Source of the DNA: an uncultured virus (IMG/VR IMGVR_UViG_3300021185_002094)
Lineage: Duplodnaviria; Heunggongvirae; Uroviricota; Caudoviricetes
Length of the DNA: 64,000 nucleotides
Reading direction: 5' to 3' (one strand)
IMG/VR virus record: IMGVR_UViG_3300021185_002094
The position numbers and the translations under genes were made by a program. The first letter of the stretch is position 1, and every line of letters begins with the position of its first letter. Shown in pieces: positions 991 to 18,570 of this stretch. The notes under the pieces are model-generated. The model was not told the DNA's origin and ran no database searches. It was given only the letters and a program-made list of their open reading frames with translations.

Positions 991-2046
991 TTACTCTTCC
1001 TGTAAAGTGGTTTCTAAATCAATTTCTAATAAAGGTTTGTGGCCGATCTGATAGTAAGACTTAATGAACTTTGCAAAATCTGTACCTGTTAAGATAGGTT
1101 CCCAGAATTCTTTAGTAAGTGTATCTTTCTGTCTTACTTTAGGTTGTACTACTTCACCTGTTGCTTGATCTACTCTGGCATACCAACCCATAGTTGGTTT
1201 AACCACATAGTTACCAGCCAAGGCAATTTCTAGTAGGCCTGAATACTGTTCGATGCCACCTTCCCATGATACTGATACTGGAATCTTTGATTTCTCTTTT
1301 ACAAATCTTGACTTCTCTACATTAATAATAAAGTCATAACCTGTAACATCACTGCCAGTTTTATTTTGTCTACGGCCTAGAATCCAAATGTTATCAGCTG
1401 AGTAGTAAATACCAGTACCACCTGATACGATAGCTTTAGGGAATAATCCAATCTCTTGATAAGTATGATTAACTGCAAGTAATGGCACATTTTTCATAGT
1501 AAGATATGGAGTAACCATTCTGAAAAGTCCTTTTAAAGCCTTAGCCCTAGACATATCAGCAACACCTTTTTCATTTAAGGCATCTTCTAGTTCTTTCTTA
1601 GACGCAAGGTTACCAATAGAATCAATCACAATGATTACTTTATCACCACGCTCGATATTATCTAACTGACCTACTAAATCAAACTTGAGTTGTTCTACAT
1701 CTGTAATTGGTGTATGTAATACTCTATCAGTATCAATACCAAATGCCTCGAAATACGATTGAGGTGAACCGAACTCGGAATCATAGAATAACATTACTGC
1801 GTCTTCGTGTTCTTTCATATAGGCACCAGCCATAAGTAAAGCAAAACTTGTCTTAAAGTGTTTACTTGGCCCTGCCAATACAGTTAGGCCTGAGGTAAGA
1901 CCACCTTCAATATCACCCGATAAGGCGACATTTACCATAGGTACTTCTGTTGGTACCATATCTTTTTCTGTAAAGAAAATCGATTTAGATAAGACTGATG
2001 TTGTCTTAATCTTCGAATTCTTTTTTAATTTATCCATTATTGACAT
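991..2046 (-). CDS. uvsX: RecA-like recombinase UvsX
   Basis: LAGPSKHFKT Walker A, FYDSEFG, IDSIGNLAS, DMSRAK, VSGGTG. Confidence 0.97.
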   Translation of the reverse strand: MSIMDKLKKNSKIKTTSVLSKSIFFTEKDMVPTEVPMVNVALSGDIEGGLTSGLTVLAGPSKHFKTSFALLMAGAYMKEHEDAVMLFYDSEFGSPQSYFEAFGIDTDRVLHTPITDVEQLKFDLVGQLDNIERGDKVIIVIDSIGNLASKKELEDALNEKGVADMSRAKALKGLFRMVTPYLTMKNVPLLAVNHTYQEIGLFPKAIVSGGTGIYYSADNIWILGRRQNKTGSDVTGYDFIINVEKSRFVKEKSKIPVSVSWEGGIEQYSGLLEIALAGNYVVKPTMGWYARVDQATGEVVQPKVRQKDTLTKEFWEPILTGTDFAKFIKSYYQIGHKPLLEIDLETTLQEE

Positions 2047-2315
2047 TATCTTTTTCTCCTGGAACTACCCGTCCCTAATTGTTGCATGATGGCCCTTTCT
2101 TTTTTTCTCCACCTTGCGACGGCTTCGGCCTTTTTACGTTTACGTTTTGCAGTAGGTTTTTCATAGAACTCCTTTCTGCGTACATCTTGCAGAGTACCAG
2201 CACGTTCGACAGCCTTTCTAAATTTTCTTAGGGCTACATCAAACGGCATTGGTTTCTGTGGTCGTTTATCCCTAGGGTTTCTTGGTTTCCTAGGTCTTAA
2301 ATCTATTGATGGCAT
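2046..2315 (-). CDS. rpsU: Phage-encoded 30S ribosomal protein bS21
   Basis: [11 protein letters not shown]...AG...[18 protein letters not shown]...AV matches the proteobacterial bS21 core. Confidence 0.93.
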
Positions 2316-2342: not shown

Positions 2343-2371
2343 ATTATACTACAAATCACTTAGAATGTAAA
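2343..2371 (-). promoter_or_regulatory. Early sigma70-type promoter for bS21-uvsX
   Basis: TTTACA-N17-TATAAT with GTAG before the -10. Confidence 0.85.
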
Positions 2372-2778
2372 GTGTTTTCTTTAATTCTTTTGCGTAAATT
2401 TGTAGTTGAAAAGCGATGATCTCGCTTATTGAAATAGAAATCAATATCTCTTTGTTTGCATAAATCTCTGCCGGTGAAGTCTTTGTCTCTATACTCTTCT
2501 CCCATAATCTTGACATTAATATCATACATTCCTAAAATATCTAGCAACTCTTCTTCTGTATTATATACTAGGATTTCATCCACATATTTAATAGCGGCGA
2601 GTTGTGCTTGTCTTTCTACTATATTCTGAACTGGTTTATTCTTCTCTAGTCTATCAACTGATGGATCATTCTGTAGTGCACAGATAAGATAATCACATTG
2701 TGTTTTTGCTTCTCTTAACATAGCACAATGACCTGCATGTAGCAAGTCAAATGTTGATGCTGTAATTCCTACTCTCAT
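2356..2778 (-). CDS. Glycerol-3-phosphate cytidylyltransferase-like (TagD family) nucleotidyltransferase
   Basis: ASTFDLLHAGH (HxGH) and C-terminal RFSTT. Start placed at ATG 2778 (ATGA overlap with the upstream stop); track start 2787. Confidence 0.85.
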   Translation of the reverse strand: MRVGITASTFDLLHAGHCAMLREAKTQCDYLICALQNDPSVDRLEKNKPVQNIVERQAQLAAIKYVDEILVYNTEEELLDILGMYDINVKIMGEEYRDKDFTGRDLCKQRDIDFYFNKRDHRFSTTNLRKRIKENTLHSK

Positions 2779-3443
2779 GATAACCAAAGTTCTATTGCTT
2801 GTTCTACAGATAATCCGTTTACGTTTATCATTTCTCCGTCAGCAGTTAGTTCATAATCTTTTTCATTATCTTGTACCCACTGATCTCTTAGCTCGTCTCT
2901 ATTCTTTGCACTAAACTTTACCTTTACCAATGGAATAAATGTATCTACTTCTGGAGTAACATATAATAAATATTCAATTCCATCGACTGTTGATTGAGTA
3001 AATACAAATGTTTTACCAGTTACCCACATACCTTTAACATGGTCTTGTATTTCGGGGTGGTCGTTATAAAATCTCATTGATTCTTTTACTGGATTAATTT
3101 GTTCTTTTTTCCATTCTGTATATAGATCATCCAATCTAGTAGGATTCCATAACTTTCCATATCTGCCTGAAACACTATTTAACTTAGGATTCGTAATTGC
3201 AATGATTGCTGCCTCTGCGGCAAAAGATGCAATGTCTTCCGAGGGGGTTGACTTGGCATATTTTTCCAAGTTTCTACCCATGATGTAAAGGTTTGCCGGG
3301 TCTTGATCTTTATCTTTAACGTGAGATAGACAACGGGTATCTACCCCTTTACCTACATACTCAGGTTGTTTATCAAGTCCTTCGGGGTAATATGCGTATA
3401 CATATTGACCAAGTGTTTCCATAAATGCTTTAGGATAAGCCAT
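2775..3443 (-). CDS. GIY-YIG (LEM-3-like) nuclease domain protein
   Basis: YVYAY...YVGKG...R...H...AEAAII...LN...G pattern in the N-terminal ~95 aa; C-terminal half not recognised. Confidence 0.6.
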   Translation of the reverse strand: MAYPKAFMETLGQYVYAYYPEGLDKQPEYVGKGVDTRCLSHVKDKDQDPANLYIMGRNLEKYAKSTPSEDIASFAAEAAIIAITNPKLNSVSGRYGKLWNPTRLDDLYTEWKKEQINPVKESMRFYNDHPEIQDHVKGMWVTGKTFVFTQSTVDGIEYLLYVTPEVDTFIPLVKVKFSAKNRDELRDQWVQDNEKDYELTADGEMINVNGLSVEQAIELWLS

Positions 3444-3463
3444 ATTTTTTCTCCATAATATAA

Positions 3464-3892
3464 TTAATCATTACCATAAACTAGCCCTTTAAGTCCAAGT
3501 GCTACTCTATTCTCCAAATGAGCCTTTTCAGTTAGCTCTTTATTCCCGCCGTAATATTCAACAGCATGAAAATCTTTAATCATTATTTGATTAACAGTTT
3601 CTACATCATTAGGTGATAATCGTAAGTCACCTAAAATACGGCCAAACTTACCTTTATCATGTGATGTTAAATAAACTTTATTATCATTTTCTTCTAATAG
3701 TTTTTTAAGATGAGCCTTAGAAGCCTTTCCAAAAAACTTTTCTTCTAAATCTCTTGTTCTTGATTCGGGTGTATCTATTCCTACCATTCTAACTCTTTGC
3801 TTCTTATAAGTCATTCCAAAACCTAAATCAACATCTACATCAATTGTGTCTCCGTCTACTACTCTTACCACATACGCTTTATACTGATACAT
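3464..3892 (-). CDS. Thermonuclease (SNase family)
   Basis: VVRVVDGDTIDV, VRMVGIDTPE, GKFGRILG. Confidence 0.9.
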   Translation of the reverse strand: MYQYKAYVVRVVDGDTIDVDVDLGFGMTYKKQRVRMVGIDTPESRTRDLEEKFFGKASKAHLKKLLEENDNKVYLTSHDKGKFGRILGDLRLSPNDVETVNQIMIKDFHAVEYYGGNKELTEKAHLENRVALGLKGLVYGND

Positions 3893-3900
3893 ATTTCCTC

Positions 3901-4146
3901 CTAATATCTAAAAGACCCCATATATTCTGGGCCTTTGGTTATAAATTCCATACCAGCCTTTGAACCAACATACTGATCGTGTTTCTTATTATATCTAAGA
4001 TAAACTTCAATTTTACCTTCAACCAATATCTTACATAAGTCTTTTGGTCTAAAGTTTGCTACATCAACTTCCATTGATTTTCCATTATCAGTGCATGTAA
4101 CTTGGCACACTGATTCGTATTGGTCTTGGTATTCTTTCTTTTGCAT
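3901..4146 (-). CDS. Hypothetical protein
   Basis: 81-aa ORF tightly packed in the operon. Confidence 0.7.
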   Translation of the reverse strand: MQKKEYQDQYESVCQVTCTDNGKSMEVDVANFRPKDLCKILVEGKIEVYLRYNKKHDQYVGSKAGMEFITKGPEYMGSFRY

Positions 4147-4154
4147 AATATATC

Positions 4155-4673
4155 CTATTTATAAAAAATGTGGTTGTCAATAGTAACAACTCTAGTTAAG
4201 TATGGAGCCCAATATGGTAAAACAAAGTCTGCATGATAATACAAAGCTCCTTCGGTTAAATCAGGTACTTCTCCCTCTAATACTAAATGTGCAATTCTAA
4301 GTGATTGCATCCATGTAACTGAGTCGGTTGGTTCATCTGACTTACCATCACAATACCAACTAAACTGGCATTTATTTCTAATAGGAACCATATTACCTTT
4401 CCAATTCTCTCTTAATTTTGCTTGATATACTACATCACATACTTCGTTAGGAAATTGTAAATCTTCTACCCTATTTAATACTACATTGGCAACTGCAACT
4501 CTACCTGCAAAGGGCTGGTTGGCTGATTCAAAATAAATGTTCTGTGCTAAACAAAATCTTGCTTGTGAGTATTCATCATCATTTTGTGTTGCGGCAACTT
4601 GTGGTATTAATAGAACTGCAACTACTAGTGCTGCAATCCATAAAGATATTTTTCCATAGTCTGGACTATTCAT
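4155..4673 (-). CDS. SleB-like cell wall hydrolase (Hydrolase_2)
   Basis: N-terminal hydrophobic segment; CLAQNIYFES, VANVVLNRV, CQFSWYCDGK, GALYYHA, HIFY. Confidence 0.92.
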   Translation of the reverse strand: MNSPDYGKISLWIAALVVAVLLIPQVAATQNDDEYSQARFCLAQNIYFESANQPFAGRVAVANVVLNRVEDLQFPNEVCDVVYQAKLRENWKGNMVPIRNKCQFSWYCDGKSDEPTDSVTWMQSLRIAHLVLEGEVPDLTEGALYYHADFVLPYWAPYLTRVVTIDNHIFYK

Positions 4674-5521
4674 AAGGTTTCCTCTATATATGTTTTTAAA
4701 CTTCTCTTAGGTTTCCACCCTAAGGCCTTTGTTCTATCTGTAACTAATTTGCCATTTTTTCTATTACCGGCTTTGTCTTCTTTAAATATAGGTGTTGCAC
4801 CTAGGTAAGATATTAGATCAAGTATTGAATGTTGTTCATCTGAACCGATACCATAGTTATCTCCATATCCTTTAAAACCTGCAAGTAGAATGCCTTCTAC
4901 AATATCATCAACGTGAGTAAAGTTTCTTAACTGCTTTCCTGTACCTGTTACTGGTAATTCTGTTGCACCTTCTTTTACCATTCTTAGAAACTTACCTACT
5001 ACTGTGGCATATTTGCCTCTATCTATTTCGTTATTACCATAGGCGTTATAGAAGTATACTATGGTATGATCTAGGCCAAACCATTCTGAATAATTAGTAA
5101 GTAATTCTGTGTTTTGTGCTTTGGTATATGCATACGGACTTGCAGCAGATGTATTATTAGCAAACTTAGTTGATGAACCAGAGTAAATAAGTTTTGCATC
5201 ATTGTGTGTTGCAAATCTTAATACTTCTGGAAACTGCATTAAGTTATAGTCCATAACTAAATCATAATCTTCAAACGATTGTTCTACTCTTGCATATTCA
5301 CCGAAGTGAAATATATAATCAAATGGGGTATGATTGCCAAGGGTGCTGAAAAGATCAAATGCATCTCCATAATAGTATGTACACCCATCATGTTTATTTG
5401 TATTTTTATTTGAATGGTGATTATCCATGGATACCACTTTGTGGCCTTGTTCTAATAATCTTTTAATGAGGTTAGAGCCTATGAATCCTTCTCCACCTGT
5501 TACTAATATATTTTCTTTCAT
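4670..5521 (-). CDS. NAD-dependent nucleotide-sugar epimerase/dehydratase (extended SDR)
   Basis: TGGEGFIG, catalytic PYAYTK (YxxxK), YFYNAYG, RNFTHVDDIV. Confidence 0.9.
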   Translation of the reverse strand: MKENILVTGGEGFIGSNLIKRLLEQGHKVVSMDNHHSNKNTNKHDGCTYYYGDAFDLFSTLGNHTPFDYIFHFGEYARVEQSFEDYDLVMDYNLMQFPEVLRFATHNDAKLIYSGSSTKFANNTSAASPYAYTKAQNTELLTNYSEWFGLDHTIVYFYNAYGNNEIDRGKYATVVGKFLRMVKEGATELPVTGTGKQLRNFTHVDDIVEGILLAGFKGYGDNYGIGSDEQHSILDLISYLGATPIFKEDKAGNRKNGKLVTDRTKALGWKPKRSLKTYIEETL

Positions 5522-5544
5522 AAACTTCTCGTTCTAATAGGTAT

Positions 5545-5573
5545 ATTATACTACACTTTTATATAAATGTAAA
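5545..5573 (-). promoter_or_regulatory. Early sigma70-type promoter for the epimerase operon
   Basis: TTTACA-N17-TATAAT. Confidence 0.85.
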
Positions 5574-5582
5574 GTGTTTTTG

Positions 5583-6764
5583 TTAATTATTATTAAATAC
5601 ATCTCGCGTATAAACTTTATCATAAACATCTAAGAGCTCAGATTCCATTCTATTGGTAATAATCACATCTGATTTTCTTTTAAACTCATTGATATTATGT
5701 ACTAAATCACAATCCATAATCTTAGTGGTAAAATCACAGAACTCTGGCTCGTAAATAATTACATTTGTTCTCTTCTTTAATCTTTCTATAACACCTTGTA
5801 TTGCAGAACTTCTAAAGTTATCTGAACCAGACTTCATAATCAGCCTATAGATACCTACTGTTTTAGGTCGTTTATATAATACTCTTCGAGTTACCCAATC
5901 CATTCTAGTATCGTTAGAATCAACTATTGATGATATAATATTGTTAGGTATATTACCTTTAGTGTAGAGTGCTTTTAATTGTTTTGTATCTTTGGGAAAA
6001 CAATAACCGCCATAACCAAATGAAGGATTATTATAGTGTCTGCCAATTCTTTCATCATAGCCCACACCTTCTATAATATCACGGGGACTAAGTCCAAATC
6101 TTTCTGCATACATATCCAGCTCATTAAAAAAGGCTACTCTCATTGCAAGATATCCATTTGCAAATAATTTAATTGCCTCTGCCTCTTTAGTTCCTGTATA
6201 TATCACTGGTGCCTCTGGAAAGTTTGGTATAATACATTCTTTTAATACATTGGCAAATTCTTCTGCCTCATCAGTCTTATCACCTATAACAATCCTTGTG
6301 GGTCTTAATGCATCTCTAAGTGCTCTTCCCTCTCTTAAAAACTCTGGCGAGAATATAATATTTTCGTATTGGTATTTCTCTCTCATTTCATCAACAAAGC
6401 CTACAGGTATCGTTGACTTAATTATAATAGTAGGTTTAAAGTTTCTTCTTACTACATCGCCAATAACATATTCTACTGACTTAGTATTAAAGGAATCTGA
6501 TTCTGGATCATAATCAGTTGGAGTTGCAATTAACACGATCTCTGGTTGATCTGTATATGCCTCATCTGCAGATGTAGTGGCAACTAATCCCACACTCTTT
6601 AACATATCAGAAATTTCTGGATCTATAATGGGTGATACTTTGTTATTGATTAGCTCTACTTTTTCTTTATCTAACTCTAATATCTTAACAACATTTTGTT
6701 GACCCAACATTGTTGCATTGGCCATACCAACGTATCCTGCACCTACTACTGTAATATCCCTCAT
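5583..6764 (-). CDS. ugd: UDP-glucose 6-dehydrogenase
   Basis: GAGYVG, IKSTIPVG, FSPEFLREG, catalytic GYGGYCFPKD, MKSGSDNFRSS. Confidence 0.95.
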   Translation of the reverse strand: MRDITVVGAGYVGMANATMLGQQNVVKILELDKEKVELINNKVSPIIDPEISDMLKSVGLVATTSADEAYTDQPEIVLIATPTDYDPESDSFNTKSVEYVIGDVVRRNFKPTIIIKSTIPVGFVDEMREKYQYENIIFSPEFLREGRALRDALRPTRIVIGDKTDEAEEFANVLKECIIPNFPEAPVIYTGTKEAEAIKLFANGYLAMRVAFFNELDMYAERFGLSPRDIIEGVGYDERIGRHYNNPSFGYGGYCFPKDTKQLKALYTKGNIPNNIISSIVDSNDTRMDWVTRRVLYKRPKTVGIYRLIMKSGSDNFRSSAIQGVIERLKKRTNVIIYEPEFCDFTTKIMDCDLVHNINEFKRKSDVIITNRMESELLDVYDKVYTRDVFNNN

Positions 6765-7687
6765 AAACTATTCCTATGTACAAATTCTAAGGCCCTTTCA
6801 GCCTCTTTATCTAATGGTCTTTTATTATACCAATTACCAGTATCTAAATCTAATTCCCTACATAAGTAGGCAATTTCTTTAGCAGTAATTGGATATTTAT
6901 TGTTTATTGCATTACCAGCCAGTGCTACCATTATCTGATACATTTTATGATACCAGCCACTGCCTGTAATCGTTCTATATTCTTGTTCTAATTTCTTTGG
7001 AAAGAAAGGACAGTCTTTATAACCAGTCCATGTAACCTTAGTATTTGTTAAAGATGATTTCATATGAGCCATCATGGCTTCTTGCATCTTCTTAGGCAAT
7101 TTATCAAAGAATGTATTACCACTTCTTTCTATATACTCGTGTCTTGACATAATATCCATAGGGGATATTGCCTTACCTTCTTTAGTAAAGATGAAGTTAT
7201 ATGCATTAGCATACTTGCCGGGTATATAATACATTCTTGATAAATCTTTGGTTTGTATATCACCCATTTCTCCAAGTTCCTTGTTGAGTGCAAACCAGAA
7301 ATGTTTAATCTTATCTTTTGTAACAAACTCAGTAAGGGGAAAGACAAGTCTAAACTTTGGCAAGTCCTTTGTGGATGAAGCAGTAGAGTAACAGATATAA
7401 TAATAATCTTTACACTTTTTCTCTAGGAACTGTTCTAAGTCCTCAGTGCAATCATCTACATCTATGGCACACCAGCCACCCCAGCCTTCTACATTATCGT
7501 TTTTCCTTGTACTACCAGCAGGATAAAAAGCAGGAGACATTAACTCTGCTGACTTTTTATCTTTTCTTGGTTTCTCGGATAGGCGATATAGTATAGATTC
7601 AAACTCTTTGAATGTTGGGAATACAAACTTCTTATCTGTCTTGATATCGAAGAGTGATTCAAATAGTGTACCAGAAACTTTATCCAT
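6761..7687 (-). CDS. Prim-Pol / archaeo-eukaryotic primase superfamily protein
   Basis: AIDVDD (DxD), YSTASS...PKFRLVFPL, D...KDLSRMYYIP, helical C-terminal domain. Confidence 0.7.
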   Translation of the reverse strand: MDKVSGTLFESLFDIKTDKKFVFPTFKEFESILYRLSEKPRKDKKSAELMSPAFYPAGSTRKNDNVEGWGGWCAIDVDDCTEDLEQFLEKKCKDYYYICYSTASSTKDLPKFRLVFPLTEFVTKDKIKHFWFALNKELGEMGDIQTKDLSRMYYIPGKYANAYNFIFTKEGKAISPMDIMSRHEYIERSGNTFFDKLPKKMQEAMMAHMKSSLTNTKVTWTGYKDCPFFPKKLEQEYRTITGSGWYHKMYQIMVALAGNAINNKYPITAKEIAYLCRELDLDTGNWYNKRPLDKEAERALEFVHRNSL

Positions 7688-7697
7688 AATATTGTAT

Positions 7698-7726
7698 ATT
7701 ATACTACAATTCAGTCTGTTTGTAAA
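7698..7726 (-). promoter_or_regulatory. Early sigma70-type promoter for Prim-Pol and ugd
   Basis: TTTACA-N17-TATAAT overlapping the upstream stop codon. Confidence 0.85.
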
Positions 7727-8637
7727 GAGGTTTTTAAAATTAATTTTAAATTTTTATAATCGTTAAAAAATCTTCTTTTATGTTCTAACTTGTAGCCCTT
7801 ACTTGATCCTTCTACTAACTCCACTACCCTAAAGTTTTTAGGCCAGAGTGATGCAAAGTAATCATAAAATTCTTTTCTTTTTTCAATAGTTGCCCAATCG
7901 GTAAGATTATTACCACCTTTGTTTGTGCCGGATGACGGCGTTTGGAAATTAATGTGAGAGAAGGCGATTGTACACATTCCTGCCTCTAGAGCATTTAATG
8001 TATAGTCCCAATCTTCTACAGTCTTGTCTCTCCATTCTTGTTCAAAATCATTGTTAATGATAGAACAGCCATACCCTAGTTGATTGAGCTTTACAGGGTG
8101 TGGTTTAGAAAATGCAAATGCATTTGAGGTCATACCACCAACTGCAACATTCTCAAAGAGTGAAAATACAGATTCAATAATTGACATTGAATTCACTAAA
8201 TTCACTTTCTTATTTTTATCATCCATTCTCATTGTAAAGTATTTCATATCATCATCCATTTGCCAGTGATATGATTCGCCTTCATTATTAGAATATCTTT
8301 TAATCCATGATCTAGCATATTGTATACCTTGATCATTTTTATCTAAGGTTAGAATATGAGTATGCGGAACAGTCTCAACGTATTGTTCGTAATCCTGGGG
8401 TTCAACTACTATCTTACATGGAATATTTTCTGCTCGACATAGGTCATATGTACTATGTGATGAAGCTCTTCCTTTAGAAGGGATATATACTGTGTATCTT
8501 TGTAGATTTTGATTTGCATAGTCTGCAATTAAATCTTCTACTAAAGCAACTAAATTAAATGTTGAACCCTGTTGAGTCCCATCCATCATAGCAAACAAGT
8601 CTTGATCTTCTTCTAAATACTTCTTTACATCAATCAT
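7711..8637 (-). CDS. TAGT/GREB1-like GT-A glycosyltransferase (copy 2)
   Basis: YTVYIPSKGRA, IVVEPQDYEQY, ARSWI, HWQMDDDM (DxD), EDWDYTL, GGN. Confidence 0.8.
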   Translation of the reverse strand: MIDVKKYLEEDQDLFAMMDGTQQGSTFNLVALVEDLIADYANQNLQRYTVYIPSKGRASSHSTYDLCRAENIPCKIVVEPQDYEQYVETVPHTHILTLDKNDQGIQYARSWIKRYSNNEGESYHWQMDDDMKYFTMRMDDKNKKVNLVNSMSIIESVFSLFENVAVGGMTSNAFAFSKPHPVKLNQLGYGCSIINNDFEQEWRDKTVEDWDYTLNALEAGMCTIAFSHINFQTPSSGTNKGGNNLTDWATIEKRKEFYDYFASLWPKNFRVVELVEGSSKGYKLEHKRRFFNDYKNLKLILKTSLQTD

Positions 8638-8996
8638 TATTCTACCCTAATCTCCTCATCACTAAGAACTGCATCCACATCTGGATTACCTTCTATCTGA
8701 TCTTCATGCATCCATCTAAGTAGTGAATTCTTAGATTTATCTGCTGCTGGATACCAAATACCTTTTGTTTTAGGTGTTACTGTTTGACCAACTAATTCTG
8801 CAAATGCCATTAAATCTTCTTCATTTCTAAATCTGATCTTTAACATTTTCCATGCTTCATTTTGTTTCTGATCGAATTCAGGCATAGAATCCCACTGATG
8901 TGGTGTTTCTATCTCTTCTTCTCCAGATAATACAAATAGACTTTCACCTTCGTAATTGGCTTGTCTATCTTTTGTTGAATTGTTTTTAACTGCCAT
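8637..8996 (-). CDS. Small protein coupled to both glycosyltransferases
   Basis: 119 aa, W..MPEF.Q...F....D...FA.L..Q.VT.KTK.IWYP; overlaps both neighbours. Confidence 0.75.
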   Translation of the reverse strand: MAVKNNSTKDRQANYEGESLFVLSGEEEIETPHQWDSMPEFDQKQNEAWKMLKIRFRNEEDLMAFAELVGQTVTPKTKGIWYPAADKSKNSLLRWMHEDQIEGNPDVDAVLSDEEIRVE

Positions 8997-9894
8997 TTAA
9001 TGCCTCCTGTTTTAATCTGACTAGTTTTAGACCTTTATCGTCAATACCTTTAGGTATATTTAGGTCCGATTTAAGAGTAGGTTTTTCTTTCTGGAAAATA
9101 GAATAGTCAATGTGGTGATGCCACCTACCCCATTTCCAAGTAACCTTAACACAATCTGGATGTTGCTTCCTTAATGATTCTGCAAACTCTCGTCTGTTAT
9201 CATATTCTTCATTTCCTTTACGATTGTTCTGATCTCCCGTTTGGTCGATATTATATAACTCTTCTGTGTTACCACCTTTCATTGTCATTGTAGTAATCTT
9301 ACCACAAGCAAAGTTGTTAAATAAGAAAGTATGGTATCCTGCCTTCATAATCCTTAGAGACAAGTCTGTATCTTCATTGAATCTACCTCTCCAGGCAAAC
9401 TCTGGATAAATATCATTAGCCAATAAGATACAAGAATATACTCTAGTGTTATGATAGTAAGGTGGGCGCTTTGTAGTTGCTGGTAAGAAGTAACTGTAGT
9501 TTAAACCTGACATTTTAACATCTGTATATCTATCAGTAAATTCTTCACTAGCACTAAAGCACGTTCCGTCGGTGATCTTTATTTTAGCATTCTTATGTAA
9601 TCTATACATATGCTGTATATTATCATCAAGAATCCAATGTCTTTTTGCACCAGTTGAACATGCATGTTCCCATACAAAGTTACGCACAGGAATTGATCCT
9701 TGCCCTAGATTAGTAAATGGAGTAACCAGAATATTAGCTGGGTCAATGACTGCAGCGTAATCATTATATTCTTGTGGTTCAACTACTATAGTATAAGGAG
9801 TGCCATTTGCCTCTAGGGTCTTAACAGTCAGTCTAGTGTCTGCTCTACCTTTAGAGATAATATAAATTGGATATTTTGGTTGATTTCCTGCCAT
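8986..9894 (-). CDS. TAGT/GREB1-like GT-A glycosyltransferase (copy 1)
   Basis: YPIYIISKGRAD, IVVEPQEYNDY, RNFVWEH, HWILDDNI, YSCIL, WRGRFNEDTDLSLR, MKGGNT, RWHHHIDY. Confidence 0.85.
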   Translation of the reverse strand: MAGNQPKYPIYIISKGRADTRLTVKTLEANGTPYTIVVEPQEYNDYAAVIDPANILVTPFTNLGQGSIPVRNFVWEHACSTGAKRHWILDDNIQHMYRLHKNAKIKITDGTCFSASEEFTDRYTDVKMSGLNYSYFLPATTKRPPYYHNTRVYSCILLANDIYPEFAWRGRFNEDTDLSLRIMKAGYHTFLFNNFACGKITTMTMKGGNTEELYNIDQTGDQNNRKGNEEYDNRREFAESLRKQHPDCVKVTWKWGRWHHHIDYSIFQKEKPTLKSDLNIPKGIDDKGLKLVRLKQEALNGS

Positions 9895-10202
9895 TATAAC
9901 TCCTTGATAAATATTCCGTCTACCATCTTGCCCTTGCGATCTTTAATATCATTATAAGCAACTTCTAAGCACTTATCGATAGTTAGGTTATTACGAATGG
10001 CAATATTAATAAGTACCACGATACAGTCGCCAATATCATCGGCAACATCATTTCCTTTACAAACATTATCTGATAACTCTCCCACTTCTTGAATTAATTT
10101 ACATACTTGGTCTTTGTCAGTAGCACCTTCAATAAGATTTCTATCTTGATGCCATTGGCCGATCTTTTGTATCAACTCTCCAGTTCTTACGCTCGTATTC
10201 AT
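9894..10202 (-). CDS. MazG-like all-alpha NTP pyrophosphohydrolase
   Basis: KLIQEVGEL, DDIGD, AYNDIKDRKGKMVDGIFIKE. Confidence 0.85.
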   Translation of the reverse strand: MNTSVRTGELIQKIGQWHQDRNLIEGATDKDQVCKLIQEVGELSDNVCKGNDVADDIGDCIVVLINIAIRNNLTIDKCLEVAYNDIKDRKGKMVDGIFIKEL

Positions 10203-10489
10203 TAGACTATAATATCCTGTTTTTTAGGTGTAATGATTTTCTTTGGGTTTCTAACTGATTCTACTTGTGAGATTAACTCATCAACTGGGTCTGCCACAAA
10301 TAGAATATTACTTTTATTAATTTCTAAGCCTTCTTTCCAGCTCTTGGTGTATGGCATAAATGGCATAAATGCAATCTTACCTTCACCGCCAGGGATTAAT
10401 ACATACCCCTTTTTAATTGTTACTGTATCAGTAGTTTCGGTAATGTCTCCTATGACCTCTTCTCCTGATGATATTCTTACTAGTTTCAT
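10202..10489 (-). CDS. Conserved T4-like hypothetical protein (probable Sm-like fold)
   Basis: KLVRISSGEEVIG...FMPFMPY...IITP pattern, next to gp43. Confidence 0.7.
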   Translation of the reverse strand: MKLVRISSGEEVIGDITETTDTVTIKKGYVLIPGGEGKIAFMPFMPYTKSWKEGLEINKSNILFVADPVDELISQVESVRNPKKIITPKKQDIIV

Positions 10490-10514
10490 AATATTTCCTT
10501 AATTTATATTGTAT

Positions 10515-10543
10515 ATTATACTACACTTTCCCATAAAAGTAAA
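10515..10543 (-). promoter_or_regulatory. Early sigma70-type promoter for the MazG/glycosyltransferase operon
   Basis: TTTACT-N17-TATAAT. Confidence 0.8.
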
Positions 10544-10548
10544 GTGGT

Positions 10549-13056
10549 TTATCCAAAAAAGTCCTCTAAATTTGAAGTTTCTTCGGTAGTCCATCCAATG
10601 GCCTTGAATATGGGTTCAATAGGGTCAAGGAATGTTTTTTGAAATTGTATTTCATAATCTATATAGTGATCCAATTCGAACTCTTTTGGGAGGTACTGCA
10701 TAAATCCGATTACGTTTTCTTTAATGGGGTTAGGCGTTTTGAGATATATAAATTTAATCTTCTCGCCATTCTTGATTGGCTGATATTTCTTTGTAAGGGT
10801 TTTATTCTTTAACAATCTGTTATGAAGTAGAGCAGCACGAACATGCATTGGAGTACCTTTCTTGTAGATGGTTTGCATGTTTGAATATTCTGTGACATTA
10901 CTTACCCCACGTGGGAATGCAATATCATGTGCTGGTAATGTTTGGAAGTATTCTTTGAATTGTAAGATTGCCTTTTGGTTATCACTTTCGGAACCTTTCA
11001 TAATAACTTTGAAAAGTTCTTTAAGAGCATCACGGCATGGTGCAGGTGTTGAGGACTTAATGGCCTCGATGCCCATAATTTTAAGTTTAGGTTCTTTATA
11101 TCTAACACCCTCGTTATCATGCACGTTTAGGATATATCTTTTCTTGGCTGTCCATATAGCACGATCTGCAATGGCCTCTCTCTTCATAACCATACGATCA
11201 TCAATCCCGCCCATTTGGCAGAACAGTTCTTGATATGCCTGACTAAGGACTGGTTCTAGTTTTTCACTAGCAACTTTATCAAGGAAATCAACTGGATTGG
11301 ATGGGTTGACTTGTTCTACCAAAGGGCCAAGATTAACATAGAGCGAATCTGTATCGATGGCAATAATATAATCTGTATCTGTATTCATTACTTTATTTAG
11401 GTATCTATTAAGAGCGACTTCTGCCCATCTAATAGTTAATTGACCAGAGAGTGTAATGGCCTCTGCAATACGTTGATCAAAGAAACGGAAGTACTTGTTA
11501 CCCATAGCACCATAAAGTGAGTTAAGAAGAATTTTAATTGCCATCTGTTGATTTTCTGCCACTGATATTCTACGTTCAATATCATAGAGTTTTTGTTTAT
11601 CACCAGGGACTACATTCTGCAATTCTTTCTGTGCATCGATCATCTGTTTCTTGATTACAACACGTTCACTATATAAATCATCTACTAAGGTAGGCATCAT
11701 GCCCCTCTTACTAGTACTAAAGCATTGGCCGTTACCGCCAACCGCACTACCATTTCTATCAAAGGTATAGCCATCTAGTATCTTATCAATATTAATTGGT
11801 ATCACTTTACCATTTTCTATTGTTTCAGGCGACATATTGTACTGCATGATGATGGATGGATATAGTGAGTTAAGGTCGAATGATACCACGTGTTCATGTA
11901 AACCAACTACTGGATCTTTTACATATCCGCCAGGGTAATTAGTCTTGATCTTACTTTCTGAGAATGGCATGGCAATCTTTCGGTCATTAAGATATCTGTA
12001 AATAATAGTATCCCAGATTGCAGTAACTCCGAATGTATCGGAATAGTTAACGCCACCTTTATAAGCCATAGTCAACATAAGTGTAATAAGGCCCATCTTA
12101 TCTTCCAGTCGGTCAACCAACTCAACGTCTTTGATATTATAATCAATGAATTTTTGGTGGTCATTTTTATATAGGCTGTGAAGTGAACCATACTCTTCAT
12201 AGGATAGTTTCTTCTCGCCTAGAATAACATGAGCGATATGATTAAGAGCATAGGACTCTTGGGCTGTGTAAGTATACTTCTGAAATAGTTCCATGTAATC
12301 TGCATGGCCAACACCCTTGATATCAAAGACAGTTTGTTCTCTATTCATTTTACGGGCCGTTCTTCGGTCAACCATACCCCATGGGGATAATCTTTTAGGA
12401 GCATCATCGCCGAGTAATCTAATTGTTCTATTGACAATATATGGAATATCAAAGTACATAGTATTCCAGCCAGTAATAATATCTGGGCAGTTACTAGGTA
12501 AAGACCAATGATTGATAAATTTATTGATAAGGTCTACTTCTGATATACAGTGTTCATATATTACACGATGTGTTTTCATAATAGACTGATCTGTATTGTA
12601 TTCTCCAAGACCCCACACATAATAGGTATTATCAATATTGTTCTTCATGGCGATTGATATAATTGGATGTTCTGCTTGATCTGGTTCTGGGAATCCATCA
12701 TCAGATGCAACCTCGATATCAATTGAGGTTACGTTAATAATATTACGATTGAATTCAATATTGCCAGGGAACTGGTCATTGATAAACTGAGATATGTATC
12801 TGTCATTGCCATAGATTTCTCTACCAGCAGTATGTTTGTTTACATCCATCCAATCTTTGGCCTCTCTCATAGAGTCAAACTTGATAGGTGCACATGGATT
12901 ACCATCTAGGGAAGTCCAATCTCCCTGCGGGGTATTTACGAATAGTGTTGGTTTGTATTTGATACGTTTCTGGACTTTTTTGCCATTTTCGTAGCCACGA
13001 TAAAGTAGCATATTTCCGTATCTTGTAACATTAGTGTAGAAATTCATATAGTCCAA
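10549..13056 (-). CDS. 43: Family B DNA polymerase gp43
   Basis: DIEV exonuclease motif, FDLNSLYPS, KILLNSLYG, IDTDS, KKRY. No intein. Confidence 0.98.
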   Translation of the reverse strand: MDYMNFYTNVTRYGNMLLYRGYENGKKVQKRIKYKPTLFVNTPQGDWTSLDGNPCAPIKFDSMREAKDWMDVNKHTAGREIYGNDRYISQFINDQFPGNIEFNRNIINVTSIDIEVASDDGFPEPDQAEHPIISIAMKNNIDNTYYVWGLGEYNTDQSIMKTHRVIYEHCISEVDLINKFINHWSLPSNCPDIITGWNTMYFDIPYIVNRTIRLLGDDAPKRLSPWGMVDRRTARKMNREQTVFDIKGVGHADYMELFQKYTYTAQESYALNHIAHVILGEKKLSYEEYGSLHSLYKNDHQKFIDYNIKDVELVDRLEDKMGLITLMLTMAYKGGVNYSDTFGVTAIWDTIIYRYLNDRKIAMPFSESKIKTNYPGGYVKDPVVGLHEHVVSFDLNSLYPSIIMQYNMSPETIENGKVIPINIDKILDGYTFDRNGSAVGGNGQCFSTSKRGMMPTLVDDLYSERVVIKKQMIDAQKELQNVVPGDKQKLYDIERRISVAENQQMAIKILLNSLYGAMGNKYFRFFDQRIAEAITLSGQLTIRWAEVALNRYLNKVMNTDTDYIIAIDTDSLYVNLGPLVEQVNPSNPVDFLDKVASEKLEPVLSQAYQELFCQMGGIDDRMVMKREAIADRAIWTAKKRYILNVHDNEGVRYKEPKLKIMGIEAIKSSTPAPCRDALKELFKVIMKGSESDNQKAILQFKEYFQTLPAHDIAFPRGVSNVTEYSNMQTIYKKGTPMHVRAALLHNRLLKNKTLTKKYQPIKNGEKIKFIYLKTPNPIKENVIGFMQYLPKEFELDHYIDYEIQFQKTFLDPIEPIFKAIGWTTEETSNLEDFFG

Positions 13057-16314: not shown

Positions 16315-16426
16315 TTTTTTCTCCTTTGCAAAGTAGACTAATTATGAGAGACCCGAACCATTCGGCATCTTCTCGTATTATCCTCATAATGTTATGAGAA
16401 TTCTTTTTAATGTATTTATATTTATA
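16315..16426 (-). promoter_or_regulatory. Tandem late promoters and structured leader of the 89-aa gene
   Basis: TATAAATA at 16413-16420 and 16419-16426; hairpin 16346-16374 shares its core with the hsp20 leader. Confidence 0.65.
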
Positions 16427-17099
16427 CACCATAAGTACTTGATTTCTCTAAAGCGATAAAATAATTTACAGGTAAATTAGTGTTACACCATTTAGAAATT
16501 AACTTAGATGAAATAAATACATTGTAATCGCCATCAACTAGCTTTAAGTTAGCAATGTTCATGACAAAGTTAAACTTAGAACCTGAGGTATTAGCACCTA
16601 GGTCTAAAGTATAAGTATTTGCGCTTGTATCTTTAGCATCAAATATTTCAACGGTTACATTGTCTTCGCCTTTTATAGCAAGATCAATATGACCAAGGAC
16701 GTTTGCCGCCTTCTTAATCTTACCGATAGTATCAGCTGTAAAGTGAATCTCTACATCAGTAGAAGGCATTGTAATATCTTTCTCTGGCGTCGTTAGAATA
16801 CTTGGTGCTGCAAAGAAATATTTTACCTTATTGGTATCATCTTTGAATAACACGGCGTTATCTTCGAACTGCAAGGTAGGGTTTTCAATAAGACCATGAA
16901 TCGATAAAAATTCATTAAGGTCATAGATTCCCATATCAGCAGGAAAGTCCTCGGTGATATTTGCGACAGCCAGAATGTTCTTGGCCTCGGAAATAGTTTT
17001 TAGTTGTTTACCAGGTTTTAACACCATGTTTGCATTGATCGTAGCAAAATTGGCGAGTAATGCCTGGGTTTCATTCGATAGTTGCATTTGCATCTCCAT
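16422..17099 (-). CDS. 45: Sliding clamp gp45
   Basis: NFATIN, GIYDLNEFL, C-terminal YFIALE; upstream of gp44/62. Confidence 0.95.
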   Translation of the reverse strand: MEMQMQLSNETQALLANFATINANMVLKPGKQLKTISEAKNILAVANITEDFPADMGIYDLNEFLSIHGLIENPTLQFEDNAVLFKDDTNKVKYFFAAPSILTTPEKDITMPSTDVEIHFTADTIGKIKKAANVLGHIDLAIKGEDNVTVEIFDAKDTSANTYTLDLGANTSGSKFNFVMNIANLKLVDGDYNVFISSKLISKWCNTNLPVNYFIALEKSSTYGV

Positions 17100-17156: not shown

Positions 17157-17450
17157 TTACTCTTCATTAATACGATCATGCTCATATAGAGCAAGTAATC
17201 CATAATGTAAAACCTTCATAAGGTCTTTGCGATACTCACTAGGAGAATCACCTTTCTTCCCATAACGCGCATTGTATTTATCCACATTACCTAAGAAAAA
17301 TCCTAGGCCGTGTCCTCTATCAATGATTACTTCACTTGATTGAAGTCCTCCTTGACCATAATGAGCATTATAAGTTGAATCTATGTAATCCTGGAGCTCT
17401 TGTATCAGAGCTCCTTCGTTAAATTTGTAGTCTGGGTTAGGCTGTTTCAT
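17157..17450 (-). CDS. DUF3310-like conserved protein
   Basis: YIDSTY..HY, GFFLGNVDKY..RYGKK, DLMKVLHY. Start at ATG 17450 (GAGG SD). Confidence 0.7.
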   Translation of the reverse strand: MKQPNPDYKFNEGALIQELQDYIDSTYNAHYGQGGLQSSEVIIDRGHGLGFFLGNVDKYNARYGKKGDSPSEYRKDLMKVLHYGLLALYEHDRINEE

Positions 17451-18570
17451 ATGTATCCTCGTTTGTAGTTTCATCTTCGAAGGTAACTCCTGAATCCACT
17501 TTAGTGTATAAGTCTAAGAAGGCGGCCTTAGTATCATCATCAAACCTTGCAATACATAGGTCTATCGCCTTCATCTTGTTATCAAAGATAGAGAAAGTTT
17601 GGACTATGTGACATAACCTTCTAGTTGAAATTACCTCGTCAACGCCATCATCATAGAATGTCTTTCTGATAATGTCTGCCCAAGATACTAGTTTCTCAGC
17701 AAACTCTACATCTGTCTTGCCGAACTTTTCCATATGTTTGGCAACGATTTTCTTTTCTACTGTTTGACTTGGAAACTGCTGATCTATAGCTACTGTAAAT
17801 CTTTCTAAGAAAGCATCATCTATGATTGAAGCGGCTGTAAACCTGCCATCTTCTGAGCCCTTACCTTTAGTATTGGCTGTGGCAATAACATTAAATCCAG
17901 GACTTGGTTCTACTACCTCGCCGGTCTTTTTAACTAGTACTGGTTTTCCTTCTAGGATACCTTGTAAACACATAATCTTGTTAGTTGCTCTATCGACTTC
18001 ATCCAGTAGAAGAACAGCTCCTCTTTCCATGGCCTTAAGAACTGGCCCTTTAGAGAATACTGTTTCTCCATTGATAAGTCTGAATCCACCTAGTAGGTCA
18101 TCCTCATCCGTCTCAGGATTAATTTGAACTCTGATGAACTCTCTACCTAGTTTAGCGGCCGCTTGTTCAACCATGAAAGTCTTACCGTTACCAGATAGAC
18201 CTGACACATAAACTGGGTAAAACATTTCAGACTTGAGGATTTTAACCACATCTGAAAAGGAACCCCATGGTACGAATGTTGGGTCTTTTTTGGCAAAGTT
18301 TGATTCTTCATTTACTATTGATTGCATCTTAACCACGTTTGATAAACCAGCAATTGGTTCTTTTTTAACTGGTACTATCATGGCCGAAAGGTCATAAACA
18401 CCAGGTTTAATCCTAATCTTTGCATCGATTAAGTCCCAGAAGTCTTTTCTTGAATAACCCAATGAGTCAGCTGTATCACTGATTTGGGCTCTTTTAAACT
18501 CTGTCTGGTCTGGGAATCTTTGAGCCAGAGTTTCAAGGATTATTTGAGTTGATTTTTTCATTTTATTCAT
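17437..18570 (-). CDS. CobS/MoxR-like AAA+ ATPase
   Basis: GLSGNGKT, ETDEDDLLGG, LLLDEVD, ATANTKGKG, AFLERF, ISTRRL. Confidence 0.92.
   Translation of the reverse strand: MNKMKKSTQIILETLAQRFPDQTEFKRAQISDTADSLGYSRKDFWDLIDAKIRIKPGVYDLSAMIVPVKKEPIAGLSNVVKMQSIVNEESNFAKKDPTFVPWGSFSDVVKILKSEMFYPVYVSGLSGNGKTFMVEQAAAKLGREFIRVQINPETDEDDLLGGFRLINGETVFSKGPVLKAMERGAVLLLDEVDRATNKIMCLQGILEGKPVLVKKTGEVVEPSPGFNVIATANTKGKGSEDGRFTAASIIDDAFLERFTVAIDQQFPSQTVEKKIVAKHMEKFGKTDVEFAEKLVSWADIIRKTFYDDGVDEVISTRRLCHIVQTFSIFDNKMKAIDLCIARFDDDTKAAFLDLYTKVDSGVTFEDETTNEDTYETA

Follow-up and report, generated by a model that had tools for sequence, protein, structure and literature searches.

Sugar decoration of phage DNA is a main escape route from restriction and CRISPR, and to our knowledge every characterized phage DNA glycosylation starts from a hydroxymethyl or hydroxy pyrimidine. 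In the T-even phages, the beta-glucosyl-HMC-alpha-glucosyltransferase of T2 and T6, a member of the Pfam family TAGT (PF20691), depends on gene 42 for hydroxymethyl-C, on gene 56, and on an alpha- or beta-glycosyltransferase (GT) that places the first glucose. This characterized TAGT uses UDP-glucose. Such donor use is consistent with two reports (PMC13216743; PMC2993671). The T6 enzyme has a GT-A fold, and solitary TAGT homologs of undefined function occur in 288 of 753 phage genomes (PMC13216743). In T4, the DNA alpha-GT (AGT) is held at the replisome by the sliding clamp gp45, to which it binds in pull-down experiments (PMC13216743, which cites Sommer 2004). The DNA of Bacillus phage SP-15 carries glucose and phosphoglucuronolactone on dihydroxypentyl-uracil (PMC5977210), and that of the Mosigvirus phages RB69 and NP carries arabinosyl-5-hydroxy-cytosine with one or two sugars, made with the help of their own isomerase, epimerase, kinase, and NTP-transferase (PMC13390438). 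Here, we analyzed a 64,000-nucleotide stretch of an uncultured Caudoviricetes virus (IMG/VR record IMGVR_UViG_3300021185_002094; hereafter the window), in which two TAGT paralogs (TAGT-1 and TAGT-2), a small open reading frame (ORF) of 119 amino acids (aa) called p119, a putative UDP-glucose 6-dehydrogenase (Ugd), and a short-chain dehydrogenase/reductase (SDR) lie close to the gene for the DNA polymerase gp43 (polB). A preliminary description of this DNA had proposed that the region from 2356 to 10543 encodes a DNA hyperglycosylation pathway with a UDP-uronic acid or pentose donor. We propose, with a probability of roughly 0.55, that this locus of a marine T4-like phage encodes a module in which DNA glycosylation is coupled to the replisome and uses a phage-made donor of the uronic-acid type.

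Both GTs of the window belong to the same family as the T2/T6 enzyme, which likewise comes from T4-type phages. The preliminary description had listed two divergent GT-A enzymes with SKGR, DDN/DDD, and ED motifs; these motifs are present, and both proteins lie above the Pfam cut-off of the TAGT profile (TAGT-1 with 151 bits and TAGT-2 with 101.8 bits, at a gathering score of 27.5), each spanning profile positions 1-205. The two paralogs are 30% identical. Residues D90, D91, N92, E174, D175, and D177 of TAGT-1 are invariant among 28 sequences, and TAGT-2 has DDD at the position equivalent to DDN of TAGT-1. The AlphaFold2 (AF2) model of TAGT-1 (pLDDT 83, pTM 0.84) matches only GT-A glycosyltransferases, none of them closely (TM 0.40-0.48, 5-15% identity), in line with the fold of the T6 TAGT, and a sequence search of TAGT-1 against solved structures gave no meaningful match.

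The small coupled ORF that had been placed between the two GTs is p119, whose ends overlap those of both neighbors. Among 80 loci fetched with TAGT-1, a p119 match adjoins TAGT-1 in 73, non-T4 contexts included, where it lies just upstream; most of the remaining seven end at or near TAGT-1. We built a profile from 52 distinct p119 homologs and ran it against the long TAGTs of cultured phages. It matches the N-terminal residues ~2-130 (100-130 aa) of five long TAGTs in four phages: Aeromonas phage 65 (p128, 4e-16), Tenacibaculum phage PTm1 (gp209, 4e-14), Paraglaciecola virus GD1 (gp80, 3.5e-11), and Vibrio phage Kuja (two TAGTs, 5e-9 and 4e-8). Because p119 is homologous to the N-terminal extension of long TAGTs, TAGT-1 and p119 are, as judged from these alignments, a split form of one enzyme with a catalytic GT-A part and an adaptor. 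By itself, p119 gave a poor model (pLDDT 63, pTM 0.31), and its matches in the protein atlas were unnamed viral clusters only. One homolog (L083, 9373-10011) is 212 aa long, with an extra N-terminal part that is ParB-like by eye and has no Pfam match. Several long or two-part TAGTs lie near RNA genes: inside a tRNA cluster in phage 65 (L088), near an RtcB-type ligase in PTm1 (L089) and L076, and near RNA-repair genes in GD1 (L090); such neighbors might point to a function connected with RNA in some TAGTs. In a non-T4 contig (L082, 650-7779), a methyltransferase-like gene lies 5' of the TAGT, and a DegT-type aminotransferase and a hexapeptide acyltransferase are encoded nearby.

The enzyme that follows p119 differs among relatives. 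The slot between p119 and the primase-like gene Prim is found in one of six states: the TAGT-2 class of the window (303-308 aa); a TAGT-2 class (283-291 aa) whose C-terminus is ..NTLDDFFG or close to it; a GT4-like protein (390-394 aa) with the end ..LHLDQFMI; a protein outside any family (315-318 aa) that has a DxD motif and the end ..SSLDEFF; a methyltransferase-like protein (261-262 aa); or no gene. The preliminary description had allowed for a mono- or disaccharide, and a constant TAGT-1/p119 followed by a variable second enzyme fits a two-step glycan; the T6 enzyme adds the second sugar, and TAGT-2 plausibly does the same. Our reference for clamp docking in this phage group is the C-terminal tail of gp43, a hydrophobic peptide of the kind that binds gp45. 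In the window, polB ends in ..SNLEDFFG, a tail conserved in related loci as [ST]L[ED]xFFG, and three unrelated slot occupants of relatives share this C-terminal motif. Of the 163 ORFs of at least 50 aa in the window, two fit the pattern, namely polB and a 57-aa frame nested within a larger gene. TAGT-2 of the window is without such a tail and carries an N-terminal look-alike insert, EDQDLFAMMDG, that is specific to its class. We had marked this insert (QDLFAMMDG) as a possible clamp peptide before predicting the complex of TAGT-2 with gp45, which is encoded in the same window. The predicted complex scored 0.69 (0.73, 0.69, and 0.65 in the individual runs) versus 0.34 for the best control; of 157 solved complexes, 116 come up to the mark set for this score, as do 2 of 215 mismatched pairs, counts that are rough since our own alignments were used. 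The runs had at least 88% of their contacts in common, with a partner pLDDT of at least 84, and the interface comprises TAGT-2 residues 10-15, 17-18, 20, and 26 on one side and both domains of gp45 with their connecting stretch on the other. TAGT-2 is thus predicted to be held on the clamp. The polB-type tails of the relatives' slot enzymes and the predicted gp45 contact suggest that the module probably acts on DNA at the replication fork. In the literature, we found no clamp tails of modification enzymes apart from T4 AGT, which differs in that it is a GT-B enzyme acting on hydroxymethyl-C with UDP-glucose, whereas the window has GT-A TAGTs, one with an N-terminal peptide whose clamp binding is predicted only.

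To compare this locus with that of relatives, we sampled them through Prim, a seed that is blind to TAGT, and compared the interval between polB and uvsX. In TAGT-less relatives, this interval encodes T4-type DNA AGTs (PF11440; 7.8e-33, 2.6e-31, and 7e-37), C5 cytosine methylases, and a Dam-type methylase, along with a PRA-PH-type NTP pyrophosphatase, SDR epimerases, UDP-galactopyranose mutase, and short dehydrogenases. The AGTs and methylases end in polymerase-like tails (L129, L152, L154, L160, L168, L181, and L182). The AGTs also adjoin SDRs, and in L168 the AGT, SDR, and dehydrogenase genes stand side by side. Given that AGTs, methylases, and sugar-nucleotide genes share one place in the genome, the polB-uvsX locus looks like a general clamp-tethered DNA-modification island. 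Our strongest argument is that sugar-nucleotide enzymes are found there beside DNA GTs of two unrelated folds, which suggests that they feed DNA glycosylation. The TAGT-less intervals also contain, in 26 loci, a thymidylate synthase (TS)-like protein of 224-229 aa (PF00303, 2.4e-21). We considered this gene as proof that a hydroxymethylase had been replaced by TAGT. This idea was weakened, since a 140-kb TAGT-less contig is without ThyX and ThyX is present in the TAGT-positive G002 (L099), a 120.8-kb viral contig that is colinear with the window at 79-87% DNA identity and adds 67 kb past its left end; for the same reason, the TS-like gene may be the thymidylate synthase of its lineage. Uncharacterized proteins of TAGT-less islands, 310-345 aa long (L129, 9386-10423, with homologs in L130, L140, L149, and L157), end in ..NTLPI or ..YVLPI. 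In G002, a gp33-like late-transcription coactivator has the similar end ..NKLPI, and clamp tails of a second type may be represented here.

For the donor, the preliminary description had claimed a dehydrogenase with an intact catalytic motif, and indeed Ugd has GAGYVG at residue 8 and GGYCFPKD at residue 252, which we take to be the diagnostic NAD and catalytic-Cys motifs. All three Ugd domains (PF03721, PF00984, and PF03720) are above cut-off, as is TIGR03026 (301.6 bits, cut-off 189.8); the equivalog NF011631 is not passed (478.9 bits, cut-off 757), and the next-best specificities score far lower. Ugd is presumed to be the source of UDP-glucuronate. In one relative (L024, 13362-14542), Ugd is split into two ORFs of 263 and 83 aa with a gap, which reflects either a broken gene or a sequencing error. 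The SDR is less clear. It passed no NCBIfam equivalog (TIGR01179, 59.3 bits, cut-off 262.3; NF008872, 25.7 bits, cut-off 294, matching residues 4-38 only), and it is a short protein with GGEGFIG and YAYTK motifs and an altered SSxxVYG stretch. Among solved chains, UDP-hexose 4-epimerases are nearest (4zrm, 2.9e-24), followed by UDP-xylose synthases (3e-12) and a UDP-glucuronate 4-epimerase (8e-12). Our best guess for the donor is UDP-glucuronate, possibly epimerized to UDP-galacturonate; the pentose donor offered as an option in the preliminary description appears less likely, the SDR being nearer to 4-epimerases than to UDP-xylose synthases and passing no curated model.

That the phage makes its donor itself, as had been proposed, is likely given how strictly TAGT co-occurs with a nucleotide-sugar dehydrogenase and an SDR. 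A dehydrogenase is found in all 37 TAGT-positive loci that extend at least 1.5 kb past Prim, an SDR in all 28 that extend at least 3.5 kb, and sampling through Prim gave a dehydrogenase in 18 of 18 TAGT-positive versus 3 of 41 TAGT-negative loci, with the reservation that these loci are phylogenetically non-independent. One sister clade keeps the combination, although its dehydrogenase and SDR are only 22-29% identical to those of the window. The combination also recurs in a different family of viruses: Vibrio phage vB_VchM_Kuja (Ackermannviridae) has two tandem long TAGTs with a p119-like domain, which resemble the TAGT pair of the window, and adjacent genes for an Ugd that is 39% identical to ours (the closest from a cultured phage) and an SDR of the same short type (44%). 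Kuja differs in having adaptor and TAGT in one protein, in the ~60 kb that separate the Ugd/SDR pair from the TAGTs, and in a TS-family gene (206 bits) 6 kb from the TAGTs, so that a hydroxymethyl-pyrimidine handle is possible there; among the literature matches listed, none dealt by title with the chemistry of Kuja DNA. A uronic acid on phage DNA has a precedent in SP-15, as does the assignment of a phage UDP-glucose dehydrogenase to DNA modification (PMC5977210). In SP-15, unlike here, hydroxymethyl-dUMP comes from a TS-type enzyme and the uronic acid is linked through phosphate; its Ugd is 29% identical to that of the window over 67% of the query, and no TAGT match to SP-15 turned up. The Mosigvirus phages are alike in being T4-like and in pairing DNA GTs with their own cluster of sugar-nucleotide genes. 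They differ by a TS-superfamily 5-hydroxy-dCMP synthase, other transferases, and a pentose donor; no TS-superfamily gene was found in the window phage. SP-15 was the only case of glucuronate-type phage DNA glycosylation that we found in the literature, and we found no link of TAGT to Ugd or to a uronic-acid donor in articles taken without their supplements.

Together, these observations lead us to a mechanism in which we infer the DNA acceptor, the order of the two transfers, and the identity of the donor, and in which clamp binding is taken from prediction. TAGT-1 with p119 would put the first sugar on newly made phage DNA, and TAGT-2, docked at the fork on gp45 through its N-terminal peptide, would add the second. 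Ugd would oxidize host UDP-glucose to UDP-glucuronate and the adjacent short SDR would reshape the UDP-sugar, most simply by 4-epimerization to UDP-galacturonate, so that the phage would supply its own unusual donor; the MazG-like pyrophosphatase would be a member of the same early transcription unit. Compared with the T-even system, the module has a TAGT split into a catalytic part and an adaptor, two TAGT paralogs, and an attached Ugd/SDR donor supply. While the TAGT family of T2/T6 DNA glycosylation and the binding of T4 AGT to gp45 were already known, p119 as a split part of TAGT, the variable slot with polB tails, the predicted gp45 docking, the co-occurrence of TAGT with dehydrogenase and SDR, and the content of the TAGT-less islands are new here. 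The locus makes the question of solitary TAGT function concrete, with its split TAGT and adaptor, a second enzyme predicted to ride the clamp, a donor pathway, and none of the usual handle enzymes found. If the proposal is true, it could reveal new DNA chemistry in an ecologically widespread phage group.

It is important to point out that several observations weigh against this proposal. One concerns the acceptor base. We searched 48 TAGT-positive records, of which three are rated at least 90% complete, and found neither ThyA-type genes (PF00303) nor C5-methylase genes (PF00145) in any of them (0/48 each); the same PF00303 search, as a positive control, found a divergent TS-like gene in 4 of 4 TAGT-less relatives. 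The hydroxylated base assumed by the preliminary description thus gained no support from this wider genome search, and its statement that the window encodes no hydroxymethylase or TET was borne out: among 57 scanned ORFs we found no domains of the thymidylate-synthase family, TET/JBP, or C5-methylases. The part added by G002 likewise showed no PF00303 or PF00145 domain. Pfam and PHROG scans of these 57 and of 85 G002 ORFs detected no genes for TET/JBP, dCTPase, dNMP kinase, or deazaguanine, an absence that for TET applies to the ORFs scanned, and no AGT was found in the 120.8 kb of G002. Among cultured phages, Aeromonas phages 65 and Aeh1 lack genes 42 and 56 (PMC2993671); both carry long TAGTs, and the single TS-family gene of phage 65 is td, beside frd. 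Relative to the T-even system, then, the TS-type hydroxymethylase, AGT, and C5-methylase were not found; no search was aimed at a beta-GT or gene 56. The genome is also incomplete: CheckV rates G002 at 67% complete, and the window and G002 together cover ~131 kb. Furthermore, the DNA assembles from ordinary Illumina metagenomes, and therefore any modification does not block standard sequencing. On the enzyme side, neither TAGT-1 nor p119 has a clamp motif; the control in which TAGT-2 was kept and the clamp replaced still scored 0.34, and the pass of the gp45 docking may reflect likeness to clamp-peptide complexes that have already been solved. The identity of the donor is a guess because the SDR passes no curated model, and the non-independence of the loci bears on the co-occurrence counts. 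Finally, short dehydrogenases occur in three relatives in which we found no TAGT or AGT (the complete phage C48C1 and two contigs of 140 and 50 kb), and therefore the sugar enzymes are not strictly tied to a recognized DNA GT.

The missing handle suggests a bolder version of our proposal, which we regard as doubtful: TAGT-1/p119 might glycosylate DNA without any of the known handles, either on a canonical base directly or on a handle whose makers belong to an enzyme family that so far has no known connection to DNA modification, with a phage-made uronic acid as the donor. If such a two-part TAGT exists, the DNA of an abundant group of ocean myoviruses would bear negatively charged sugars, added as the replication fork proceeds.

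Among the alternatives, the one that survives best retains DNA as the acceptor and changes the donor: the TAGTs would use a host donor such as UDP-glucose, like the T2/T6 enzyme, and Ugd and SDR would be mere neighbors that drain or divert host UDP-sugars or alter the envelope. A long TAGT occurs without a dehydrogenase in the cultured phages 65, PTm1, and GD1, the short dehydrogenases of TAGT- and AGT-less relatives point the same way, and in the window Prim parts the TAGT genes from Ugd, with separate promoter-like sites for Prim-Ugd and SDR. Against this, TAGT never occurs in the marine T4-like group without a dehydrogenase and SDR wherever the locus extends far enough (37/37 and 28/28), the pairing persists in the sister clade despite the low identity of both enzymes, and Kuja, from another virus family, repeats it. 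In L168, moreover, SDR and dehydrogenase stand next to a DNA GT of a different fold, and in one non-T4 locus the TAGT lies near a DegT aminotransferase, a hexapeptide acyltransferase, and a methyltransferase. We therefore consider a host donor unlikely.

Less probable still, in our view, is that the sugar genes belong among the auxiliary metabolic genes and serve to remodel the host envelope polysaccharide (the O-chain of lipopolysaccharide, or capsule), for example to block superinfection, with the TAGTs acting on a glycan. This is how such genes have been read in print: Ugd, rfaE, and glycosyltransferases of pelagimyophages were described as host O-chain genes, which counts against our proposal, and SAR11 genomes were argued to carry restriction systems only rarely (PMC7029224). 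Ugd, SDR epimerases, and RfaE-like proteins are classical envelope-sugar enzymes, cyanophages have Ugd in other contexts, and the searches with PF00303 and PF00145 revealed no DNA acceptor pathway. However, in the excerpts available of that article, GT8 is the commonest GT family and we found no mention of TAGT (PMC7029224). The genes of the window lie in the replication module and not in a host-recognition cluster, slot enzymes carry a polymerase clamp tail with TAGT-2 predicted on gp45, the same locus in relatives encodes DNA methylases and T4-type DNA AGTs, and the p119-type domain is fused to TAGT in many phages whose hosts' envelopes differ strongly. If our proposal is true, the published O-chain reading of these pelagimyophage-like sugar genes would need to be revised.

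The eukaryotic TAGT relative GREB1 is reported to modify protein. That the module modifies a protein, tRNA, or other RNA near replication or RNA repair is very unlikely: the RNA-gene neighborhoods of phage 65, PTm1, L076, and GD1, the absence of genes 42 and 56 in phages 65 and Aeh1 (PMC2993671), with td as the only TS-family gene of phage 65, and the failure to find a DNA handle pathway in the window's phage group would fit it, but such neighborhoods are few, none is in the window, and DNA as the target is favored by the clamp-type tails and by the DNA-modifying enzymes that relatives encode at this locus.

Not all genes near the TAGTs appear to belong to the module. Prim, with at least 596 relatives, recurs across hundreds of marine T4-like contigs, whether or not these have a TAGT; it is an interposed replication gene rather than a part of the sugar pathway. 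It had been called Prim-Pol; it matches phrog_9765 (1.6e-47), and its Pfam match is weak. For the MazG-like gene, the PHROG matches are strong (1.3e-37 for the best MazG-like family) and Pfam MazG (PF03819) is below cut-off (17.8 bits, cut-off 22). In many relatives, this gene lies between the dehydrogenase and the SDR, and a PRA-PH-type enzyme replaces it in other lineages. The p95 ORF is probably not specific to the module because it also adjoins polB in TAGT-less relatives. We also examined the cytidylyltransferase-like gene as a module part and rejected it, as it is kept at 71-79% identity in the TAGT-less L135, L138, L168, L172, and L182. It is set apart from the sugar genes by lysis and nuclease genes and passes only the broad families PF01467 and TIGR00125. 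Its earlier identification as TagD-like gains little support, given that TagD (TIGR01518) is below cut-off (63.6 bits, cut-off 165.4) and RfaE domain II scores at least as well (73.8 bits, cut-off 181.5). The glycerophosphate cap derived from it is therefore unsupported, the gene occurring also without TAGT.

Table 1. Features of the proposed glycosylation locus and the sliding clamp gene, in window coordinates.
Feature	Position	Strand	Evidence
gp43 family-B DNA polymerase (polB)	10549..13056	-	PF00136 7e-30, PF03104, phrog_262
p95, 95-aa ORF, function unknown, first gene of coupled run	10202..10489	-	phrog_527 1.9e-17
MazG-like all-alpha NTP pyrophosphatase	9894..10202	-	phrog_715 1.8e-34
TAGT-1, GT-A glycosyltransferase	8986..9894	-	PF20691 5.5e-44
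p119, 119-aa ORF without family	8637..8996	-	homology to N-terminal extension of long TAGTs
TAGT-2, second TAGT paralog	7711..8637	-	PF20691 6.4e-29
Codons of TAGT-2 residues 10-20 (EDQDLFAMMDG), predicted gp45 docking peptide	8578..8610	-	class-specific insert and predicted complex
Prim, primase-like	6761..7687	-	phrog_9765 1.6e-47; Pfam match weak only
Ugd, UDP-glucose 6-dehydrogenase-like	5583..6764	-	PF03721, PF00984, PF03720; TIGR03026
SDR, 283-aa extended-SDR nucleotide-sugar epimerase/dehydratase type	4670..5521	-	PF01370 4.9e-37
Cytidylyltransferase-like	2356..2787	-	PF01467 1.1e-13
gp45 sliding clamp	16422..17099	-	PF09116 2.5e-12
Sigma-70-like promoter match, 10/12, 5' of the p95-MazG-TAGT1-p119-TAGT2 run	10515..10543	-	consensus match only
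Sigma-70-like promoter match, 11/12, 5' of Prim-Ugd	7698..7726	-	consensus match only
Sigma-70-like promoter match, 11/12, 5' of SDR	5545..5573	-	consensus match only

All genes that had been named between 2356 and 10543 were found on the minus strand at the positions previously given (Table 1). The order 3' of gp43 is p95, MazG-like, TAGT-1, p119, TAGT-2, and then Prim, Ugd, and SDR. Neighboring ORF ends overlap by 1-11 bases from p95 to TAGT-2, and there are 4-base overlaps at Prim/Ugd and between SDR and a SleB-like cell-wall hydrolase. This hydrolase is the first of four genes between SDR and the cytidylyltransferase-like gene that the preliminary description had left unmentioned, the others being an 81-aa ORF, an SNase-type nuclease, and a 222-aa ORF. 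The last of these (2775-3443, minus strand) has an N-terminal GIY-YIG-like pattern by eye and may encode a homing endonuclease that came to lie between the nuclease and cytidylyltransferase genes by insertion; we did not count it in the module. As to the early-type promoters that had been claimed, consensus-like sites lie 5' of the units, with identical TTTACA-N17-TATAAT matches (11/12) just 5' of polB, Prim, SDR, and the gene for ribosomal protein S21, and the total of 51 promoter-like sites in the window is not above that of shuffled sequences (54.1 +/- 7.2). Past the cytidylyltransferase-like gene follow S21, UvsX, and gp41, the phage-encoded S21 (2046-2315, minus strand; PF01165, 7.4e-16) lying directly upstream of uvsX, and the remaining genes of the window form a replication and structural module of the T4 type.

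We call this marine T4-like phage pelagimyophage-like on account of its gene content. S21 and curli genes have been described as typical of pelagimyophages (PMC7029224), and the part added by G002 encodes gp32, gp59, ribonucleotide reductase, ThyX, glutaredoxin, PhoH, RNase H, ligase, and the curli proteins CsgG and CsgF. At ~29.7-35.6 kb of G002, a CHASE2-sensor adenylate/guanylate cyclase, a FecR-like protein, and the curli export proteins CsgG and CsgF are encoded in a row. In 14 marine or viral metagenome runs from ~11 studies between 2017 and 2025, at least half of the words sampled from this sequence recur, which we take as near identity. In addition, contigs of three RNA-library runs match parts of TAGT-1, MazG, TAGT-2, Ugd, and SDR with 0-1 differences, which is a weak hint of expression because DNA carry-over is possible. 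Elsewhere in the window, we observed a MoxR/CbbQ-type AAA ATPase (17437-18570, minus strand) followed by a 716-aa protein without a family (18701-20851, minus strand), both between gp45 and the gp46/47 nuclease genes, and a RimK-like ATP-grasp fused to a putative Zn-protease domain (35393-36856, minus strand) between the tail sheath and large terminase genes.

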